Shown: in pieces, positions 2,706 through 18,180 of the stretch
How positions within the stretch are numbered: the stretch's first letter is position 1
Layout: every line of letters begins with the position of its first letter
Virus record (IMG/VR): IMGVR_UViG_3300040856_003015
Location: 1-64,000 of that record
Source: a virus
DNA: 64,000 bases
Strand: one strand, 5' to 3'
The notes under the pieces: generated by a model
What the model saw: only the letters and a program-made list of their open reading frames with translations
Databases searched by the model: none
Told to the model about the DNA's origin: nothing
Program-made: the position numbers and the translations under genes

Positions 2706-3673
2706 ATTTTCTTCCAAGTGGTAAATTTTAGTTTTGCTTCTAGTCCAGTGTAGATATTAGATTTTATCACAGATTGAACATCTAGTCCAGACAATACCAT
2801 TTCATTAATATCTTTTTCACTAATGGATGAAGGCCAAATAACTATTGGAATATTTTGATCGATTATTTTTTCCATCCGTAAGTGAATTTCATGGTTTCTT
2901 GGTTCATTGTCATAAACATATACCAAGTGAGAAATATTTAGATCTTTTAAATTAATGTCAGATCCACACATCGCTACACTGTTGTCAATAAAGTTAGAAT
3001 CAAATGGACCCTCAACAACATAAACTGGTTTATTTAAATCTAAGTTATCATAACCATAAATTTTTGGAGCATCCTGATCTAACATTATAGTGATATACTT
3101 GATTTTATTATTATCCAAGGATCTTCCCTGAAATCCGACTAATTTTTTATTGTAGTAAAGTGGTATAATGATCCTAGGTTCATCGTATACAATTTTTTCA
3201 AAAACTTTTTTTTGTTGATTTACCCACTGTTTAAAATTTGGAGTGTAAAAAAATTTTTTAGGGTCTAATTTCCTCTTATCAAGATATTCTTTTGCTTGTT
3301 CATTAGTATCTGCCGTCGGCAAATCTAACTTTTTTTTAAAGTTTGGTTTTTCGAATTTAAATTGTTTTTCTGGAGGAACAGAAGGCTTTGTTTTGGTATT
3401 ATTTGTTTTGAACTTTTCTAGAGAATACTCTTTATATAAAGAAGAATCAACTTGCTTTAAAAAATTTGAAAATGAGATACTTATGCCACAGTTATGGCAT
3501 TTATAATTTGTATTATTTTTTACGGAATAAAGAAATCCTCTAGATTTATTTTTATTTTTCTTAGAATCTCCACAGATAGGACACCGGAAGTTGTAGAGAT
3601 TTAAATTCTTCTTTGAAAATTTATCAAGTTTAACTGATAAAGTATTAATATATTTGTCATCAATAAAATCCAT
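2702..3673 (-). CDS. gp61: DNA primase
   Basis: NFRCPICGDS...CHNC zinc finger, GFQGR, VVEGPFDS TOPRIM, KDINEM; start taken at MDFID. Confidence 0.95.
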   Translation of the reverse strand: MDFIDDKYINTLSVKLDKFSKKNLNLYNFRCPICGDSKKNKNKSRGFLYSVKNNTNYKCHNCGISISFSNFLKQVDSSLYKEYSLEKFKTNNTKTKPSVPPEKQFKFEKPNFKKKLDLPTADTNEQAKEYLDKRKLDPKKFFYTPNFKQWVNQQKKVFEKIVYDEPRIIIPLYYNKKLVGFQGRSLDNNKIKYITIMLDQDAPKIYGYDNLDLNKPVYVVEGPFDSNFIDNSVAMCGSDINLKDLNISHLVYVYDNEPRNHEIHLRMEKIIDQNIPIVIWPSSISEKDINEMVLSGLDVQSVIKSNIYTGLEAKLKFTTWKKI

Positions 3674-3697
3674 AATAAAAAATCCAAAGACAACACT

Positions 3698-3725
3698 AGT
3701 ATACCAGATCACGTCCCGTTGTCAA
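3698..3725 (-). promoter_or_regulatory. Sigma70-type early promoter for gp61-nrdA
   Basis: TTGACA-N16-TATACT on minus strand upstream of primase. Confidence 0.7.
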
Positions 3726-3740
3726 GGTCTAGATGGGTTA

Positions 3741-4166
3741 TTATTTTCTTATATTTTCTATTACAGATTCTCTTCCAGAAAAGACGTTTTTAACTGAAGG
3801 TGTGGCAACATCTAATACTGCAAGTAGTACGACCAACACTGTAAGAACTCCACCAACTTGCCACCTAAACTTTGCAAGATTATCTAATTTAGTTTCCAAC
3901 TTGTCCATTCTTTCTATTACAGATTTATGTTCTTCTTTATTTTCTCTTTTAACATCATCAACTATTTTTATAAGTAATTCGTCACTTTTTGTTGCTTGTC
4001 CTATCTTCTCATCATGTTTTGCTAAAATATTAGCAATCCTAGAATTTCCCTCAGATATTTTTTCTACAGCAGATTCAAGTTTGGCTAACATCTCTCTTGA
4101 TAAATCTTCATATATATTCAGTTTTGATTCTAGGACTGCAAGCTTAGACTCTGAAGATTTAAACAT
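3741..4166 (-). CDS. Coiled-coil protein with C-terminal transmembrane helix
   Basis: Heptad-rich N-terminus, hydrophobic WQVGGVLTVLVVLLAVL. Confidence 0.65.
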   Translation of the reverse strand: MFKSSESKLAVLESKLNIYEDLSREMLAKLESAVEKISEGNSRIANILAKHDEKIGQATKSDELLIKIVDDVKRENKEEHKSVIERMDKLETKLDNLAKFRWQVGGVLTVLVVLLAVLDVATPSVKNVFSGRESVIENIRK

Positions 4167-10509: not shown

Positions 10510-11066
10510 TTATAGTGCAAATATGTACTTAATATATACTTGGGATTACTTCTAGGAGAATTTCCTCGATGGGGAAACAACCATAGAGGGGGAAAGACTA
10601 ATAATTTTCCACTTTCTGGTTTTATTACTAAGTCCAAAAATTCAGTTTCCCCACCTTCATTAACATCATTTAAATACCACATAAAAGACAGAAACCTTAT
10701 CGAGGATGAAGAATCTGTAACATCAACGTGAGTATCAAAGACATCGTTTCCGTTATTCTGATATTTTTTTATTCTAAATTGCTCAAATGCATTTTTTTCT
10801 GGGAAACATCTTTTATCAATAAACTTATAATACTTTTCTTTATAATCTAAAGTTTTTCTAATAAGAGTATTATGAATTTTTTCAACATCCTCTGATAACT
10901 TTGAATTTTGAGTTAAATTTAGTTGAGTAAAATTTGGTTTTCTATCATTATCAATGCGTTCATGAAGTTCTTCATTTTCATCAAAAAAATTTATTAAAAA
11001 TTTACAAACATCAGAACTCAAATTATTCTTTTCTATGTGTATAAAATCATTTAATTCAACTACCAT
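10506..11066 (-). CDS. 2OG-Fe(II) oxygenase
   Basis: FDTHVD, WYLNDVNEGGETEF, FPPLWLFPHRG..P...KYI facial-triad motifs. Confidence 0.88.
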   Translation of the reverse strand: MVVELNDFIHIEKNNLSSDVCKFLINFFDENEELHERIDNDRKPNFTQLNLTQNSKLSEDVEKIHNTLIRKTLDYKEKYYKFIDKRCFPEKNAFEQFRIKKYQNNGNDVFDTHVDVTDSSSSIRFLSFMWYLNDVNEGGETEFLDLVIKPESGKLLVFPPLWLFPHRGNSPRSNPKYILSTYLHYK

Positions 11067-11967
11067 AACTAAACTCTACTCTAGCGATTTCATCAAGTTT
11101 TTGCATCACTTCATCAGTGAAATATACTTCAGGATCTTTTAGGATTTGTTTTGCGTAAATCTTTTTACCATTCATTTCATAACGACCTGCTACATTTTTC
11201 CAAAGTCCGCCAATCTCACCGAGTTCAAGAAGACCATAATATCTATCAAGACCACGCTCATCATAATAAAGACGAATTTCAACTTCTTTATTCTCCTTGC
11301 TCAAGCGCGACTTGTGAGTCTTTGCCTTGATAAGATTGCCGACGACTTCTGTTCCATCCTTCTCTTTCTTTTTGCTGAGATAGATGATTGTACTTGCTGC
11401 ATACTTGAGACCAGAATTGTGAGACACGACACCATTACCAAGAATATAATGATGTTCTCCTTCAACTGTGATGTCATAAACATCCTCAGTCTTTATTTTC
11501 TTGATAGACTTTACAATTCGTTCCATGCCACCTCTTATACATATAGATTTGATAGTATCTGAAGGTAATAACTCAGTAACGGATTTCCATTCATAACCAT
11601 CTCCAGTATCTACTAAAAACTTATGTTCGCCAGAACATCTAATAGTTTCTCCATCTTCCAATTCCAATTCATAAACATCTTTATCGGTGAAATGGAAAGT
11701 GTCAGTAACTGATGAATAACCAAACATAGTTCTCACTTTGTCACCAACTTGAATAGATTCAATAGGAATAGAACCATTTTCTGTTTGTATCTTAGTTCCC
11801 GCAACTAAACAACCCCCACCCATTTCCTTTGTAGGGACATAAGAGTTATGAGAAAGTGTCCCATCTTCAAAAATATAGTGATGAGCATCTTCTATTTCGA
11901 TATCATAAACATTAGTATTCTTTTTTTTAATTTTTTCAATTTTTTTAATTTTGATGCCAATAGTCAT
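11056..11967 (-). CDS. uvsX: UvsX C-terminal precursor: IntC + 11-aa extein + mini-intein + UvsX C-terminal extein
   Basis: IntC ending SHN, [11 protein letters not shown], second intein C...SHN, then [23 protein letters not shown] SD upstream. Confidence 0.93.
   Translation of the reverse strand: [303 protein letters not shown]
11416..11811 (-). mobile_element. Contiguous mini-intein (132 aa), no endonuclease
   Basis: Block A CLVAGTKI, block B RCSGEH, block F VYDITV, block G SHN followed by Ser. Confidence 0.93.
11845..11967 (-). mobile_element. Split intein C-fragment (41 aa)
   Basis: Basic N-terminus [11 protein letters not shown], block F VYDIEI, block G SHN followed by Ser. Confidence 0.92.
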
Positions 11968-11983
11968 TTGAAATTTACTCCGT

Positions 11984-11991
11984 TATAAATA
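11984..11991 (+). promoter_or_regulatory. T4-type late promoter for the antisense HNH gene
   Basis: TATAAATA on + strand 28 nt before ATG 12020. Confidence 0.7.
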
Positions 11992-12019
11992 GTTATAATC
12001 ATACCTATTATGTAATAGA

Positions 12020-12655
12020 ATGAAGCACATACATCATATTATACCACGACATATAGGTGGGTCTGATGACCCAAGCAATTTAATAGAATTAACAATAGAA
12101 GAACACGCAAAAGCACATTTTGATCTCTGGAAGAAGTTTGGTCGCATAGAAGATAAAATTGCTTGGGAGTGTTTATCTGGAAGAAATCTTTCAGAAGAAG
12201 AAAGAATTATACTATCAAAATCTGGATTTGAAAAGTTTTTACTAGATGAAAGTAAAGTCACAAAATGGAAAAATAAAATATCAAATACATTAACTGGAAA
12301 AATTCAATCTGAAGAAACTAAAATAAAAAGATCAAACTCACTAAAATTAGCATATAAAGAAGGTAGAAAAAAAGTTATTGTTAATTCAGATGATGCTAGA
12401 AGAAGATATTATGAAAATAATATATCTCAATTAATGGCAGAAGGTAGAAAAAAATCTCAAGAGTGGAAGAACTCTGTAACTTCAGAAGAATATAAAATTA
12501 AAAAAACTTTATCAGACCCAAGATCTAAAAAAGTATCTGTAGATGGAATAGTTTATAATTCAATTAGAGAAGCATCTAAAAAAACAAATATAAATTATTC
12601 CAAACTAAGAAATGTACTAATTTCCAATATTAATAATAATATCTTCTTCTGTTAA
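12020..12655 (+). CDS. Free-standing HNH homing endonuclease with NUMOD3/NUMOD1-like tails
   Basis: HHIIPRHIGGSDDPSNLIELTIEEHAKAH; GKIQSEETKIKRS; VDGIVYNSIREASK; lies between the split intein halves. Confidence 0.9.
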   Translation: MKHIHHIIPRHIGGSDDPSNLIELTIEEHAKAHFDLWKKFGRIEDKIAWECLSGRNLSEEERIILSKSGFEKFLLDESKVTKWKNKISNTLTGKIQSEETKIKRSNSLKLAYKEGRKKVIVNSDDARRRYYENNISQLMAEGRKKSQEWKNSVTSEEYKIKKTLSDPRSKKVSVDGIVYNSIREASKKTNINYSKLRNVLISNINNNIFFC

Positions 12656-13498
12656 TTCAGAAACTTTTTTCCACTCACCCTCTTGAGTCATTAATTTATG
12701 CTCTCCTGTTAATTTATAAATCGACCCATTTTCAAGTTCAACTTCATAATATTCATCAAACGAATATCTATAAGTATTGATGACTTTTTTGGGTCCGACC
12801 ATAGTATTCACATAATCTCCAACTTCAATTTCTGAAATATCAATATTTCCATTTGGAGTTTTAATCTTGGTTCCTTTAAGAGCACATCCGATAACATCGT
12901 AAGTGTGGTTTGTTACTAAAAGTGGAATGTTTGCTTGTCCCAGTTTCAGAGTAAGCATACGGAATGCTCCTTTGACAAGTTGAGATTTGGTCATGTCCCT
13001 GACTTGCTTATCATCTAAAGCATCACGAATCTCTTTCTCTGTGGAAAGCATACCTAAAGAGTCTAGCACAAACATACAGGGTTTGCGATCCTCTACAGGT
13101 TTTTTTAAGTATATGTCTACTGCCTGTAATGCTTTCTGTCTAAACTGTTCAATCGTAACAACATTGACAACAACCAATCGCTCTAAGTCAATGCCACGAC
13201 TTGCAAGAAGAGATTTGTTAACTGCTGCCTCAGTGTCAAAGTACAAACAGTAACCGTCAGGATTACTATCCAAAAAATTCTTAACCACAGCGAGACTAAA
13301 GAAAGTCTTCCCAGTAGAAGACTCACCAGCAATGGCAGTAATCTTATTCCCAGAAACACCACCAAATATGCTACCTGAGACCAGTGAATTAAAGATGTAA
13401 GAACCCGTGTCCACAAAGGTTTCGGTGTCGTCGATGTCTGATGCGAGTTGGGTGTAGTCATCTCCAATCTCTTTTACAATTTCTTTTAAAAAATCCAT
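12617..13498 (-). CDS. uvsX: UvsX (RecA-like) N-terminal precursor fused to IntN
   Basis: AGESSTGKT Walker A, YFDTE, VLDSLG Walker B, [9 protein letters not shown] then intein Cys; start taken at MDFLKE. Confidence 0.95.
   Translation of the reverse strand: [293 protein letters not shown]
12620..12886 (-). mobile_element. Split intein N-fragment (89 aa)
   Basis: Block A CALKGTKI, block B KLTGEH, acidic [14 protein letters not shown], then stop with no block F/G. Confidence 0.92.
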
Positions 13499-13616
13499 TT
13501 TTTTGTTTCTGGTTAAATTTAAACGACCAAAGTTTAGAGTAGAGATCCTTTTCATTTGTATTTTTAAGGATCTCTATAATTTTATCCAATTCTTTTTCAG
13601 TTATTGGAACTTCCAT
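13458..13616 (-). CDS. Small hypothetical protein
   Basis: MEVPITEKELDKIIEILK...LYSKLWSFKFN fills the gp43-uvsX gap. Confidence 0.55.
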   Translation of the reverse strand: MEVPITEKELDKIIEILKNTNEKDLYSKLWSFKFNQKQKNGFFKRNCKRDWR

Positions 13617-13623
13617 AATACTA

Positions 13624-14970
13624 TCAAATGAAAAATGAATCAAGTGTTGATTTTTTTTCAGATGACCAACCAATAGCATTCAAAATAATTTTTAATGGTT
13701 CCAAGAATCCCTTTTCAAACTGAGTATCGTAATCAATATATTGTTTCAACCCAAGTTCTTTGGGAAACTCTTGAATGAAAGAAATAACATTTTCATATAT
13801 TGGATTTGGTTTTTTTAAATAACAAAATTTAAGTTTTTCACCATTTTTAATTAAAGAATATTTTCCTGTAAGTTTATTAAGTTTAATATAATGATTAAAC
13901 AATAATGCACCTCTGGCATGAATTGGAGTTCCTTTATTATAAATTGAATTGTATGATTGATGTTTTACAACATTAGAAACAGATCTTGGGAAAGAAATTT
14001 CTTCTGGTGGAAGTTTTGAAAATGAACTTCTACAACTATCAATATATTTTATAACATCATCTTCAGACCCGTCCATTAAAATTTTAAATGCTTCCTTAAG
14101 CATTTTTCTACATGAAGATGGAGTTGACGATTTAATTGCTTCAATTCCTTTAATTTTTAATTTGGTTTCTTTGTATCTAACCCCTTCACTATCCCACACA
14201 CTTAGAATATATCTCTTTTTTGCAGTCCAAATCCCACGTTCAGAAATACACTCTCTTTTCATGACCATCTTCTGATCATAAGCATTGACATACTTTGCCA
14301 ACTCCTGATAAGAAGACTCAATATATTTTTCAATTTTTTCTTTACAAATTTTATCTAAAAAATCAACAATCTTTTCTGGACTTTTTTCTTTTCCATCAAA
14401 TATAACATCAACCAAAGGACCCATATTAATATAAAGAGAATCAGTATCTGATGCAATTACATAATCAATGTCATTGGTTTTTAAAATGCTATTTAAATAA
14501 GAGTTCATCTTATTCATAATCCATCTAATTGAGACTTGACCAGAATATGTAATGGCTTCGGCAATATCTAGTTTGTAATACCTAAAGTACTGATTGCCAC
14601 AAGCGCCAAATGCAGAATTGAGTTGGATCTTGCGGGCCATCTGAATGTTATTGCATCTTGCAATCTCCTTCTCCAATGCCTTAGTCGGAGTTTTTTCATA
14701 ATCTTGTTTTGCAATAAGCATCTTCTTCTTGTAGATGGTGCGATCCTTATAAATCTTCTCCATCAGTTCTGGCAGCATACCTTTCACCCTATGATAGAGT
14801 GCTCCATTCGCAGTCATAGTGAGATTTACCTTTTGCAAAGGTTCCAAATCCAACTCTTGTTTGATAAGTTTATCTACATTCACCTTTACGGAAAGTTCTC
14901 TTACCTGTTTAAGTGCCTCAAGTTCTTCTACAATTTCCTCACGGGACATTTTACGAACATCTTTCCACAT
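13624..14970 (-). CDS. gp43: DNA polymerase family B, C-terminal half (fingers/palm/thumb) with extra N-terminal helix
   Basis: KIQLNSAFG motif B, ASDTDS motif C, KKRY, KGIEAIKSSTP; ATG at 14970 follows GGAG SD and HNH stop (TGA-A-ATG). Confidence 0.93.
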   Translation of the reverse strand: MWKDVRKMSREEIVEELEALKQVRELSVKVNVDKLIKQELDLEPLQKVNLTMTANGALYHRVKGMLPELMEKIYKDRTIYKKKMLIAKQDYEKTPTKALEKEIARCNNIQMARKIQLNSAFGACGNQYFRYYKLDIAEAITYSGQVSIRWIMNKMNSYLNSILKTNDIDYVIASDTDSLYINMGPLVDVIFDGKEKSPEKIVDFLDKICKEKIEKYIESSYQELAKYVNAYDQKMVMKRECISERGIWTAKKRYILSVWDSEGVRYKETKLKIKGIEAIKSSTPSSCRKMLKEAFKILMDGSEDDVIKYIDSCRSSFSKLPPEEISFPRSVSNVVKHQSYNSIYNKGTPIHARGALLFNHYIKLNKLTGKYSLIKNGEKLKFCYLKKPNPIYENVISFIQEFPKELGLKQYIDYDTQFEKGFLEPLKIILNAIGWSSEKKSTLDSFFI

Positions 14971-14971
14971 T

Positions 14972-15538
14972 TCAATTCTCCATAATTTTAGTATGCTTTT
15001 TGCGGTTTTCACTCATAGTAATAATCTGCAAGTTGTCTTCGTGATGCTTTCCTCCTTTTGAAATTGGAATTATGTGGTCCACTTCGTGAGGAATACCAGT
15101 TTCTTCTGTTAATCGTTTTGCTTCACAATAAATCTTATTTATTTTTTGTTGATTTGCAGTTTCATCAAAAGCATCTCTTATCCTACATCTTCTGCGAGCA
15201 GCAATAGAGTTTAAAACTGCCCTCTTATGCTCTTTACCCAAATATCTAAATTTAGAAGAACAAGAATGAGAACAAAATTGAAGTTTCCATTTCTCACTTG
15301 TTGCTCTAAATCTGCTTACAATAAATGGAGAACCGCAATTTTGACAGTAAAGAGTTTCCTTTCTCTCTTTATTTTTATTCTCCAAATGTTTAGGTTTTTG
15401 GAGTCCATACTTTCGTATTTTCTGCTTAATAAGAGGGTCGGAGCATCCAAAAAAATCAGCACACTCTTTACGACTTTTGTTTTCAAGAATATAAAGTTGA
15501 TGTAGTTGTTCTTTAGTTATGTTGAATTTTGGTTGCAT
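14972..15538 (-). CDS. HNH homing endonuclease (HTH + Zn finger + HNH) inserted in gp43
   Basis: HTH-like N-terminus, CQNC...FCSHSC, HEVDHIIPISKGGKHHEDNLQIITMSENRKK. Confidence 0.9.
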   Translation of the reverse strand: MQPKFNITKEQLHQLYILENKSRKECADFFGCSDPLIKQKIRKYGLQKPKHLENKNKERKETLYCQNCGSPFIVSRFRATSEKWKLQFCSHSCSSKFRYLGKEHKRAVLNSIAARRRCRIRDAFDETANQQKINKIYCEAKRLTEETGIPHEVDHIIPISKGGKHHEDNLQIITMSENRKKHTKIMEN

Positions 15539-15549
15539 TTGTTTTATTG

Positions 15550-15582
15550 TATCCGCACATTATTATTTATAAGATGTGGATA
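15550..15582 (-). promoter_or_regulatory. Late promoter in hairpin loop upstream of HNH
   Basis: TATCCACAT-ct-TATAAATA-ata-ATGT(GC)GGATA. Confidence 0.65.
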
Positions 15583-15584
15583 TT

Positions 15585-16856
15585 CTACAACATTTTCTCC
15601 AATTCTGCAATACGATTATTAAGTTCGTGCTTTTCAACAAGTGTTTCTGGTGAAACTGAATATTGCATAATAAGATGGGGGTATAGAGAATTAAGGTCAA
15701 AACTAACAACCCATTCATATACTCCAGGAATAGGTTCCTTTACGTATGCTCCACCAAATTTCTCACTTTTACTTGTTGATTTTTTTGGTGGTATAACAAT
15801 ATTTTTTTTCTTAAGATAATTATATATAATCGTATCCCACATTCTGACCTGAGAAAAAATGTCGGCATAGTTAACCTTAGCGTCATAAGCCATAGTGATT
15901 GCCAATTCAATCAACTTCATTTTATCTTCAAGACGGTCAACAAGTTCTACGTCAATAATATTATATTCGACAAATTTTTGCCAACCTTTTTTATAAAAAT
16001 CTTGAAAGGTTTCGAACTCGGAGTGATCTAGTTTTTTCTGACCCAACTCAACATTAGCAATATGATCTAAACGATATGATTCTTGGGCAGTATACGTAAA
16101 TTTTTTGTAAAGATCCAAATAATCTAACTGAGTAATTCCACCAACATCAAAAGTTATTTGTTGATTATTATTTACAAATACTTCCCTCTCAGTAATAAGT
16201 CCCCATGGAGAAAACCGTTTCATTCTTTTTTTTCCAAAAATTTTATCAAGTCGTCCACAAATATATGGGACATCATAAAACTGAATATTCCACCCAGTAA
16301 TTACTTCTGGAGTATTATTTTCCCAATACGCAATAAAAGAATTTAACAGATCATACTCAGAGTTACACAAAATATAATTAACATTTTTTTGTTTATTATT
16401 AAATGGTTTTGTCCCCCATGTAGTTATTTCTTTAGTTGTATAGTCTTGAATAGTTATTAGAAGAATTTCTTCATCACAGTTTTTAGGATCTGGAAACCCA
16501 TTTTCTGAAGCGACTTCAATATCAAGAGTTACTAATTTAATTTTTGAGATATCAAACTTAATTTCATCTTCTGGGTATTTGTCCGAGATATATTGGTAAA
16601 TAAATCTCTCATTACCATATACTTCAAATCCATCAACATCTTCATATTTTTTATAAAACTCCCTACAATCTTTTACTGTACCTGGTTTTATTTCTTCTAC
16701 ATACTTTCCATCAAGAGTTTTATATTTTGTTTTTTTATTTGAATTCACATATAATGTTGGAAAGTATTCTTCCTTAAACATTACATGTTGACCATCATGA
16801 TATCCACGGACAAGAAACTTGTTTCCGACCATTTGGATGTTAGTATAAAACTTCAT
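15585..16856 (-). CDS. gp43: DNA polymerase family B, N-terminal half (exonuclease + motif A) with extra C-terminal helix
   Basis: LDIEV ExoI, GWNIQFYD ExoII, YNIIDV ExoIII, SFDLNSLYPHLIMQY motif A, ends SPETL-VEKHELNNRIAELEKML*. Confidence 0.94.
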   Translation of the reverse strand: MKFYTNIQMVGNKFLVRGYHDGQHVMFKEEYFPTLYVNSNKKTKYKTLDGKYVEEIKPGTVKDCREFYKKYEDVDGFEVYGNERFIYQYISDKYPEDEIKFDISKIKLVTLDIEVASENGFPDPKNCDEEILLITIQDYTTKEITTWGTKPFNNKQKNVNYILCNSEYDLLNSFIAYWENNTPEVITGWNIQFYDVPYICGRLDKIFGKKRMKRFSPWGLITEREVFVNNNQQITFDVGGITQLDYLDLYKKFTYTAQESYRLDHIANVELGQKKLDHSEFETFQDFYKKGWQKFVEYNIIDVELVDRLEDKMKLIELAITMAYDAKVNYADIFSQVRMWDTIIYNYLKKKNIVIPPKKSTSKSEKFGGAYVKEPIPGVYEWVVSFDLNSLYPHLIMQYSVSPETLVEKHELNNRIAELEKML

Positions 16857-17101
16857 TTTGTAAGACTTTCGTACTTTTCAAGAATAGTGCTTTTAGGATC
16901 GCAAATAGTTACAATCTTGTCAGAATGTATCATAAAATTATCCTCAGATGAAAAATATCCCATCCATGATTCTAGTGTAAAATCTTTTTTGATTAAAAAT
17001 GGTTTTATTAACATACAGTCTGGTTCTCCCAACTGAGACTGTATTTCTTTTATTTCGCTTATTAAAATTTCTCCCGTAGATATTTTTAAAATTTTAATCA
17101 T
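16853..17101 (-). CDS. Conserved small hypothetical protein upstream of gp43
   Basis: LISEIKEI...GEPDC.LIKPF; stop overlaps gp43 start. Confidence 0.75.
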   Translation of the reverse strand: MIKILKISTGEILISEIKEIQSQLGEPDCMLIKPFLIKKDFTLESWMGYFSSEDNFMIHSDKIVTICDPKSTILEKYESLTK

Positions 17102-17121
17102 TTAAAATTCCCATCTGTCTA

Positions 17122-17150
17122 AGTTTAGCATAAAAAAAGTGGGGCGTCAA
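17122..17150 (-). promoter_or_regulatory. Sigma70-type promoter overlapping the hsp20 terminator
   Basis: TTGACG-N17-TAAACT with TG extension. Confidence 0.6.
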
Positions 17151-17173
17151 CTGGTTTTTGCCAGTTTGCCCCA
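17132..17173 (-). terminator. Rho-independent terminator after hsp20
   Basis: GGGGC-AAACTGG...CCAGTT-GA-CGCCCC stem then TTTTTTT. Confidence 0.65.
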
Positions 17174-17199
17174 GAAGCGCCGACTATATTCAATTATAT

Positions 17200-17634
17200 T
17201 TATAAGTAATCTTTACGCTTATGATGTTCTGGAACAATCTTCCTTATGTAGATAGTGAGGAGTCCATCTTCAAAGGATACATCTGAGACTTCTGTATCAT
17301 CTGCAAGTGTCCATGATCTATTGAAAGATCGTTGTGCCAATCCTTTATGGACGTAGTTGGTATCAGTTTCTTTATCTGCCTTTTGCCCCTCAACAAAAAG
17401 TTTTCCATCTTGGGTATAGACATAAACTTCTTTCTTTTTAAATCCTGCAAGTGCAAGTTCAAGTCTCGATTCTACATTACTAACTTGAACAAGATTATAT
17501 GGAGGGTAATTTGAAGTAGTTTCATGAAGACTAAATAGACGATCAAAATATTCGTCCATCCCAATACTATAATGATTGATTCTATCCATTAGAGTGGGAA
17601 GATCTTCTGCAGTATAACGTTTAATACTAGTCAT
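17200..17634 (-). CDS. hsp20: Small heat shock protein
   Basis: NYPPYN, LELALAGF, HKGLAQRSF, FEDGLL. Confidence 0.95.
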   Translation of the reverse strand: MTSIKRYTAEDLPTLMDRINHYSIGMDEYFDRLFSLHETTSNYPPYNLVQVSNVESRLELALAGFKKKEVYVYTQDGKLFVEGQKADKETDTNYVHKGLAQRSFNRSWTLADDTEVSDVSFEDGLLTIYIRKIVPEHHKRKDYL

Positions 17635-17706
17635 TTTTTCTCCTTTAAAAGCGAGTTTGTAAATTTGGATCCATTATGGCATCCATTACTAATTATACAA
17701 TAAAAT

Positions 17707-17731
17707 AAAAAAAATGGGGTGTTGAAACCCC
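17707..17731 (-). terminator. Putative terminator after regA
   Basis: GGGGT/ACCCC stem followed by long T-run on minus strand. Confidence 0.55.
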
Positions 17732-17739
17732 AACAAAAA

Positions 17740-18180
17740 TTATTCGGTTTCCTTTACCCTGGTTTTTTTACCAATATTATATTTTTGTTCTAGAATCCAT
17801 TCATTTTTTTCTTTGTAAGAAATAACTTTAATTTGATTTAAAGGAGCAACATCAACTACTTTATTATGATCAACAATCGATACCAATCCCCAATCAGAAA
17901 TTAAATGTATAATTCTATTTCTCCTTTGAATATCATTAACTGTTAGATTTGCATGTTTGCCATCAAGGGCAAAAAGTTCTTTAAAATGAGTTATATAATA
18001 TCTACCTTGTTTGTGTAGAATGTGAGCACTCTGATAAAGTTTCTTCTGTTTTCGTGAAGCAACACCAATTCTTGTTAGTGTTTCTCTAACTTTGAGAAAA
18101 TCATCAGGTTCATTTAAAACAACCTCCACCATCATATCAGGTGACCAATTTACTTGAGGTTCGTTTACAGTGTTAGTCAT
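17740..18180 (-). CDS. regA: Translational repressor RegA
   Basis: DDFLKVRETLTRIGVASR...HILHKQGRYYITHFKELFALDG. Confidence 0.96.
   Translation of the reverse strand: MTNTVNEPQVNWSPDMMVEVVLNEPDDFLKVRETLTRIGVASRKQKKLYQSAHILHKQGRYYITHFKELFALDGKHANLTVNDIQRRNRIIHLISDWGLVSIVDHNKVVDVAPLNQIKVISYKEKNEWILEQKYNIGKKTRVKETE

Follow-up and report, generated by a model that had tools for sequence, protein, structure and literature searches.

The window analysed here is the whole of a 64,000-nucleotide (nt) stretch of viral DNA, positions 1–64,000 of the IMG/VR record IMGVR_UViG_3300040856_003015. At positions 13,624–16,856 it carries gene 43 of a T4-like cyanophage, coding for the replicative DNA polymerase gp43 of family B (PolB), in the form of two cistrons, gp43A and gp43B, with an HNH gene between them. 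Our reading, to which we give a probability of roughly 75%, is that the polymerase has been split by a mobile module and that its halves reassemble non-covalently, with the short extensions at the two new ends (the tail of gp43A and the head of gp43B) probably paired.

All three genes are on the minus strand (Table 1). gp43A comprises the N-terminal and 3'-5' exonuclease domains and the beginning of the palm, including motif A (DLNSLYPH). It matched the Pfam families DNA_pol_B_exo1 (E = 8.5e-26) and DNA_pol_B (E = 2e-12, profile positions 18–94) and was 55–80% identical to the N-halves of related loci. The remaining palm with motif C (DTDS), the fingers with motif B (KIQLNSAFG) and the thumb are in gp43B. 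As the DNA_pol_B profile is matched from 18 to 94 in gp43A and from 98 to 237 in gp43B, no part of the polymerase has been lost, and the location of motif A in one protein and motif C in the other means that the active site is composed of two polypeptides. With the exonuclease domain and motifs A, B and C all there, the two proteins together have the features of a T4-type family B polymerase.

gp43A ends in ...SPETLVEKHELNNRIAELEKML, its stop codon lying at 15585–15587. The product of the HNH gene scored 32.9 bits against PF01844 (cut-off 21.4, E = 7.4e-8) and is built of a helix-turn-helix (HTH)-like module, which is N-terminal, and the HNH motif, which is C-terminal; by motif it is an HNH endonuclease, for which DNA cleavage is predicted. 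Its stop codon TGA (14972–14974) is followed by a single A and then by the ATG of gp43B at 14970. An earlier, first-pass annotation of this DNA had described a gp43 split by an HNH gene, with a spacer of 46 nt and a coupled start (GGAG...TGA-A-ATG), and this was confirmed from the open reading frames (ORFs) and the Pfam matches; its statement that motifs A and C are on separate polypeptides was equally correct.

The break was located by aligning both halves with the contiguous gp43 of phages S-SKS1 and P-HM1 and with 48 contiguous alleles from viral contigs. Homology ends three residues after SPETL in gp43A and restarts at RELS (residue 24) in gp43B, which leaves 14 non-homologous residues on the former and 23 on the latter. 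Both extensions are missing from all 48 contiguous alleles, which have a short loop at this point. The first-pass annotation had seen an extension at each new end and a break after the SPETL region, and on both counts it was right; the resumption of homology is a few residues earlier than it had placed it. In a comparison of the junction region with gp43 of phage RB69 (E = 1.9e-24), the break fell directly after ISPETI430, in a variable surface loop of the palm (RB69 residues 431–454) that precedes the fingers and lies about 20 residues past motif A.

The same post-SPETL loop contains unrelated insertions of 8–13 amino acids (aa), e.g. ..YTDEMRQ.., in seven loci of other marine T4-like gp43 lineages (L094, L107, L114, L145, L148, L155 and L162), and is thus permissive and a general hotspot for insertions and deletions. 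A target-site duplication was considered and dropped, a local alignment of the tail-coding with the head-coding DNA having given only a weak match of 17 nt; at the protein level, the resemblance of ETLVEKHEL on the tail side to EALKQVREL on the head side is a curiosity.

Table 1. Features of the split gp43 locus, in window coordinates
Feature	Position	Strand	Size, sequence or basis
gp43A, N-terminal half of T4-type PolB	15585..16856	-	ORF, 423 aa
C-terminal tail of gp43A, residues 410-423	15588..15629	-	HELNNRIAELEKML (14 aa); in every split allele, in none of the 48 short-loop contiguous alleles
Spacer between gp43A stop and HNH start	15539..15584	-	46 nt
Free-standing HNH homing-endonuclease gene (by motif)	14972..15538	-	188 aa; Pfam PF01844
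gp43B Shine-Dalgarno GGAG, within the HNH gene at its 3' end	14978..14981	-	sequence
gp43B, C-terminal polymerase half	13624..14970	-	ORF, 448 aa; DNA_pol_B profile positions 98-237
N-terminal head of gp43B, residues 1-23	14902..14970	-	MWKDVRKMSREEIVEELEALKQV; without counterpart in short-loop contiguous alleles
Cassette-borne replacement of polymerase codons (RELS...ANGALYHRVKG)	14779..14901	-	about 41 codons; counterpart of 'HomR' of the MobA element
Mobile module as a whole, from the tail to the replaced polymerase segment	14779..15638	-	bounds from the pair of alleles L054/L079

The possibility that the HNH gene is part of an intron or intein was examined. No intron family of Rfam matched positions 11000–18000 at E up to 10, and the HNH ORF has only 46 nt upstream and 1 nt downstream of it; a group I intron was rejected on these grounds. 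A split intein was also rejected, since the extensions of 14 and 23 aa have neither nucleophile nor HN motifs and nothing like the length of a Hint fold, and no Hint or intein family of Pfam matched gp43A or gp43B. The absence of both kinds of element, as claimed in the first-pass annotation, was thus upheld.

Contigs from RNA libraries provide weak evidence pointing the same way. One (X18, 15462–15666) runs unspliced from the gp43A tail via the spacer into the HNH gene, and another (X16, 14840–15129) runs unspliced from the HNH gene into gp43B. They are identical across four metatranscriptome runs from three studies, and no spliced joints were seen in the contigs of these four runs. Joining of the halves at the level of RNA, translation or protein (cryptic intron, ribosomal bypass or protein splicing) has a precedent in the bypass of T4 gene 60, which occurs in elements of this kind (bioRxiv 10.1101/2022.08.31.505936), and no positive evidence for it was found here. 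It is opposed by the Rfam result, by the unspliced RNA-library contigs and by the shortness of the extensions and their lack of nucleophile motifs. Moreover, the junction content ranges from 96 to 1090 nt across alleles, yet the stop, Shine-Dalgarno and start codons are kept. We therefore consider such joining very improbable. In RNA run X15, contig ends leave the window sequence exactly at 14970, the start of gp43B, and at 15027, in the 3' end of the HNH gene; the diverging ends resemble the junction of locus L006, which holds an HNH remnant (see below), and several junction types seem to coexist within this one sample. In some runs, parts of the stretch were without RNA contigs, and these gaps carry no weight either way.

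C-halves were searched for among proteins of 246–784 aa, clustered at 90% identity. At least 120 clusters of 448–469 aa matched gp43B at 100% coverage and 70–79% identity (100% for the window's own protein), some of them on contigs of 145–255 kb. The head motif was present, with small variations, in all of the 120 best metagenomic matches to gp43B, and every split allele among 80 viral-contig loci had both tails. A megablast search against cultured phages returned the polymerase flanks only (71–74% identity), and the HNH protein had no close relative in phage records, where just its C-terminal motif was matched, at no more than 57% over 30% of its length.

The split alleles gave a catalogue of 20 distinct junctions. 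In one type the occupant is an HNH gene of 186–195 aa; in another it is an HNH gene together with an ORF of 54–60 aa. This small ORF, seen between the HNH gene and gp43B in L003, L004 and L008, is Cys-rich (CxxC...CxxC) and gave no significant family match. In L013 the HNH gene is followed by a phage-type Dam methyltransferase gene (L013:819–1274; PF05869, E = 2e-31). Five loci (L009, L012, L014, L016 and L087) have instead a GIY-YIG-like gene of 175–181 aa, which is below the Pfam cut-off (E = 1.5e-4) yet contains the motif YVY...FYVG...R, and L023 (2044–2607) has a 2-oxoglutarate (2OG)-Fe(II) oxygenase-like gene, also below the cut-off (E = 3.7e-5). The tails of L023 are the most divergent (..RIEELEDALSN; MWKDVRGMSKEEIASELENLKKV). 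Finally, remnants of 96 nt (L018), 108 nt (L028) and 171 nt (L006) are recognisable as the ends of GIY or HNH genes. Among the catalogued junctions no split allele free of any nuclease trace was found except L023, whose junction has only the oxygenase-like gene and showed no resemblance to the HNH or the GIY-YIG-like gene.

The two nuclease types have sequence in common. Residues 5–48 of the HNH protein match the C-terminus of the GIY-YIG-like protein (E = 5e-12), and from this common HTH-like module of 44 aa the two would seem to have one DNA target. Upstream of the gp43B start, HNH-type loci and some GIY-type loci (e.g. L012) agree in sequence over roughly the last 35 nt, with the GGAG among them, so this segment is part of the split scaffold and not of one nuclease.

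Two other loci gave unusual matches. In L058 (about 2745–4001) the junction is of the contiguous type and the N-half match ends at residue 288, followed by a gap of 1256 nt, which suggests another insertion elsewhere in gp43. In L074 (about 2714–3552) the tail and a GIY-like match are present and the C-half match begins only at residue 88.

The history of the split was followed in trees built from the polymerase cores without the junction. Split alleles are scattered in them: 12 changes of state are required on the N-core tree, of which well-supported branches force at least nine, and for the C-core tree the figures are 10 and at least seven. The window's own halves are nearest to the contiguous alleles L020–L022. 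The tree of the 50-aa segment just downstream of the head unites all split alleles in a single clade (support 90) and all short-loop contiguous alleles in a second (98). The module is thus of one clade, yet it is found in at least seven to nine separate gp43 lineages. A split allele (L054) and a contiguous one (L079) show about 93% DNA identity up to PETL and again from GFLPKLM on, and everything in between is replaced, which implies that the module brings its own version of about 40 polymerase codons. When the window was compared with L017, nucleotide identity was 92–100% over about 14877–15686 and 52–83% in the flanks, with a sharp upstream edge. The HNH protein is 86–97% identical across loci whose polymerase halves share 57–77%. 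A module of one clade, a scattered split state, an island of identity and a nuclease more similar than its surroundings are what nuclease-driven gene conversion leaves behind when the flanks are co-converted, and they indicate that the module has spread in this way. A reasonable guess for the HNH cleavage site is the coding region of the conserved motif A, which is just inside the identity island.

These results bear on the idea, put forward in the first-pass annotation, of a mobile cassette that brings its own helices. The helices do travel with the cassette, as the single clade, the scattered core trees and the identity island indicate. They do not belong to the HNH gene, because the same tails flank the GIY-YIG-like gene, the oxygenase gene and the nuclease remnants; the extensions are tied to the split junction itself.

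The tails are under purifying selection. Diversity in the N-tail is 0.41 at third codon positions and 0.12 at first and second positions, very like the adjacent core (0.44 and 0.09), and this pattern points to selection of long standing. The corresponding values for the head, 0.23 and 0.12, give a less clear picture. The hydrophobic positions of both tail and head are nearly invariant across the 120 clusters. Their helical hydrophobic moment was equalled or exceeded by 12% of shuffled sequences for the N-tail and 5% for the head, and the support for the extensions comes from conservation, not from hydrophobic spacing.

A model of the gp43A–gp43B complex, made with alignments A2 and A3, scored 0.89, the best control scoring 0.00; 58 of 80 solved complexes also attain this mark, as do 2 of 110 mismatched pairs. 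Agreement between runs is 96% or more of the contacts, and the partner pLDDT (predicted local distance difference test) is at least 89. Most of the approximately 370 predicted contacts are between the cores. The interface also includes residues 409, 412–413, 415–416, 418–420 and 422–423 at the tail and residues 1–2, 5, 8, 10, 13–14, 16–17, 20–21, 23–24 and 27 at the head, which in each case form one helical face (i+3/4 spacing) and fall at the conserved hydrophobic positions. The structures of RB69 and T4 gp43 have been solved, so the pass may only reflect likeness to gp43, and the binding of gp43A to gp43B is a prediction only. The first-pass annotation had read the 3–4 spacing of the extensions as amphipathic and had proposed that they are dimerisation adaptors. 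The spacing taken alone is weak evidence, given the shuffles; the tails are in the modelled interface, and a role in dimerisation is predicted for them.

A fused relative was found in the cultured Synechococcus phage S-CAM7. Its gp43 is contiguous (867 aa) and has, after SPETL, a helix (TMDDLN...) that corresponds by homology to the first part of the tail, a short turn (NDPS) and then a homologue of the end of the head (EKLEAMLQVRQLS), with a segment of the cassette type downstream of the helices. The gp43 of a viral contig identical to it (L084) was folded with alignment A4, giving a mean pLDDT of 85.8 and a helix-turn-helix hairpin made of helices 415–426 and 433–448 (pLDDT 92–96). Two helices joined by a turn fit an antiparallel pair in the split enzyme and suggest that the gene was cut at or near the tip of the hairpin. 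From this hairpin and the periodicity of the contacts we infer direct pairing, the tail and head probably packing as the two arms of a helical hairpin cut at its turn. The first-pass annotation had said that uninterrupted gp43 with both helices would speak against its idea; the 48 short-loop alleles have neither helix and S-CAM7 has homologues of both, which goes part of the way to refuting it, and the adaptors may come from an existing hairpin and not from the nuclease.

On the tree of the cassette segment S-CAM7 has a long branch, which joins between the contiguous clade and that of the split alleles and lies outside the whole of the latter. Its gp43 may be either the ancestral hairpin form or an old re-fusion. 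The odds are about even that the helices were not brought by a nuclease at all and that an older, hairpin-bearing gp43 like that of S-CAM7 was cut at its tip; in the opposite reading, S-CAM7 is a split allele that lost its nuclease and was re-fused in frame. The existence of a contiguous enzyme with both helices, its branching outside all split alleles and the other insertions at this hotspot in other gp43 lineages favour an ancestral hairpin. The case is weakened by the finding of one such lineage only (four phage records and the identical viral contig) and by the length of its branch in a tree of 50 columns, while the S-CAM7 linker has no clear likeness to the tail ends, so that neither direction is supported by it.

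The spacer between gp43A and the HNH gene may have a part in expression. It contains a hairpin (15550–15582) with a folding energy of -11.4 kcal/mol (z = -2.49), and TATAAATA (15564–15571), on the 5' side of this hairpin and in its loop, matches the T4-type late-promoter consensus. The spacer is kept in other HNH-type loci, and GIY-type spacers likewise begin with TATAAATA. By analogy with T4 I-TevI and Aeh1 mobE, so far as these are described in PMC3045599, a switch over nuclease expression may be supposed in which the start of the nuclease gene would be hidden in early read-through RNA and freed in late transcripts.

The following mechanism is proposed. The replicative PolB would be made as two subunits, gp43A and gp43B, its palm surface loop having been cut by a module of five parts: the 14-aa tail, the spacer, the nuclease gene, the 23-aa head and about 40 replacement codons. 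The nuclease would presumably cut gp43 alleles that lack the nuclease gene, and repair from the donor would copy the whole module, so that the split architecture could move between divergent cyanophage polymerases. The split junction would serve as a landing pad where HNH and GIY-YIG nucleases are exchanged, cargo genes are added and nucleases decay to scars, with gp43 remaining split through all changes of occupant. The halves would reassemble non-covalently via their large native interface, and the tail and head would probably pack as the arms of the cut hairpin. A stronger version, in which tail and head are an obligatory portable clip and together with the replaced segment form a 'split-and-clip' vehicle, a safe site for nucleases (HNH, GIY-YIG) and cargo (2OG oxygenase, Dam) that sweeps through cyanophages by gp43 conversion, is doubtful.

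Several points weigh against the reading of a split and reassembled polymerase. The record is a 74.9-kb fragment, 39% complete, and a second polymerase gene elsewhere is possible. The RNA-library contigs may include DNA carry-over, and rare spliced forms would be dropped in contigs. The amphipathicity of the extensions is not significant for such short peptides, and recent conversion or constraint at the DNA level could contribute to the low synonymous diversity of the head. The complex model lists no tail-to-head residue pairs, and in phage Aeh1, where the enzyme NrdA is split in a similar manner, the fragments associate without their tails (PMC3045599). The binding of the halves and any need for the tails rest on prediction.

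Because the record is only a fragment, the split gene might be a dead polymerase in a phage that is replicated by another enzyme. Against this, both halves are 57–80% identical to relatives with all catalytic motifs intact, many contigs of 145–255 kb have the split form and the exact sequence of the window is present in 14 seawater metagenome runs, making this alternative extremely improbable. It is also unlikely, though less so, that the tails are neutral insertion scars which add nothing, the halves meeting via the native domain interface alone. This would suit the preponderance of core contacts in the model, the behaviour of the Aeh1 NrdA fragments and an amphipathicity that is not above chance. 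It would leave unexplained the near invariance of the hydrophobic positions of tail and head across 120 clusters, a third-position diversity in the N-tail about three times that at first and second positions, the persistence of the tails after nuclease decay and the retention of homologous helices in the unsplit S-CAM7 enzyme.

The view that the gp43 cassette belongs with the splice-free splits of essential phage genes is well supported. The MobA element splits the large subunit of T4-type topoisomerase into genes 39 and 60 (Manning and Atkins, bioRxiv 10.1101/2022.08.31.505936). The two architectures agree in nearly every part. As in the gp43 cassette, an HNH gene lies, out of frame, between an element-encoded C-terminal extension of the upstream half and an N-terminal extension of the downstream half, and a host segment is replaced, the HomR of MobA corresponding to the approximately 40 gp43 codons. 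In both, insertion at a single site has happened more than once, in different phage clades; the extensions often outlast the nuclease, which decays, and other nuclease families and fused forms occur. Unlike MobA, the module described here has gp43 and not topoisomerase as its target, is found in cyanophages and has no translational bypass cassette; its extensions are of 14 and 23 aa, whereas those of MobA are of about 44 each, and there is an unsplit gp43 allele with homologous helices in the form of a hairpin.

In the Aeromonas phage Aeh1 (nrdA-a / mobE / nrdA-b; Crona et al. 2011, PMC3045599) an essential enzyme is again split by an HNH gene without intron or intein, with insert-derived tails at both new ends and an active site formed from two polypeptides. 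There mobE is kept silent by RNA structure, and the tails are essential for dimerisation of the heterodimers, not for association of the fragments (PMC3045599). Aeh1 is a single phage whose tails were tested biochemically, whereas the gp43 cassette is widespread and known from sequence and model.

gp43 itself is divided into gp43A and gp43B in the Aeromonas salmonicida phages 25 and 44RR (Petrov et al. 2006, 2010, as cited in PMC2988022 and PMC2677866). In phage 25 the split is likewise without intron or intein and has a homing-endonuclease gene between the halves, and the Aeromonas phage gp43A and gp43B are described in PMC2988022 as co-purifying and being active. In the record of phage 25 (NC_008208), gp43A is of 498 aa and ends inside the fingers, about 70–80 residues beyond the cyanophage break, in agreement with the fingers split given for Aeromonas phages in the first-pass annotation. 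With a break in the fingers in one case and in the palm loop in the other, these are independent events.

A further comparison is with the 'fractured genes' that have split inteins and a free-standing nuclease (Dassa et al. 2009, PMC2677866). In these too a replication gene of cyanophage type is in two parts with a nuclease between them, the nuclease is lost in some loci and there is a hairpin upstream of it. They differ in that their halves rejoin by protein trans-splicing, whereas the gp43 halves are without a Hint domain. An arrangement that looks like a fractured gene with a split intein occurs in the window near the intein-free gp43 split. The N-terminal part of the neighbouring uvsX (12617–13555, minus strand) matched RecA (E = 1e-11) and has a Hint-like segment at its end, its matches to Intein_splicing (E = 3.9e-7) and Hint_2 being under the cut-offs. 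An HNH gene with an I-TevI-type DNA-binding match (12020–12655, plus strand) overlaps it.

No description of a split g43 in cyanophages was found in the searchable literature. The idea of helical extensions at the new ends is not new, having already been described for Aeh1 NrdA (PMC3045599) and T4 MobA (bioRxiv 10.1101/2022.08.31.505936). The gp43 loci add to it a large natural data set (at least 120 clusters, several nuclease families, decayed forms and one fused form) on the cutting of an essential enzyme between its catalytic Asp motifs, and it is relevant to the question of whether such cuts are generally mended by short helical extensions, as has been proposed for Aeh1 NrdA and the T4 topoisomerase. 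The tails could also serve as small natural heterodimerising tags for split polymerases. Finally, gp43 is a standard marker of cyanomyovirus diversity, and phylogenies of g43, surveys that depend on primers and counts of the pangenome will all be distorted by a module that converts part of it from lineage to lineage and breaks up its gene calls.

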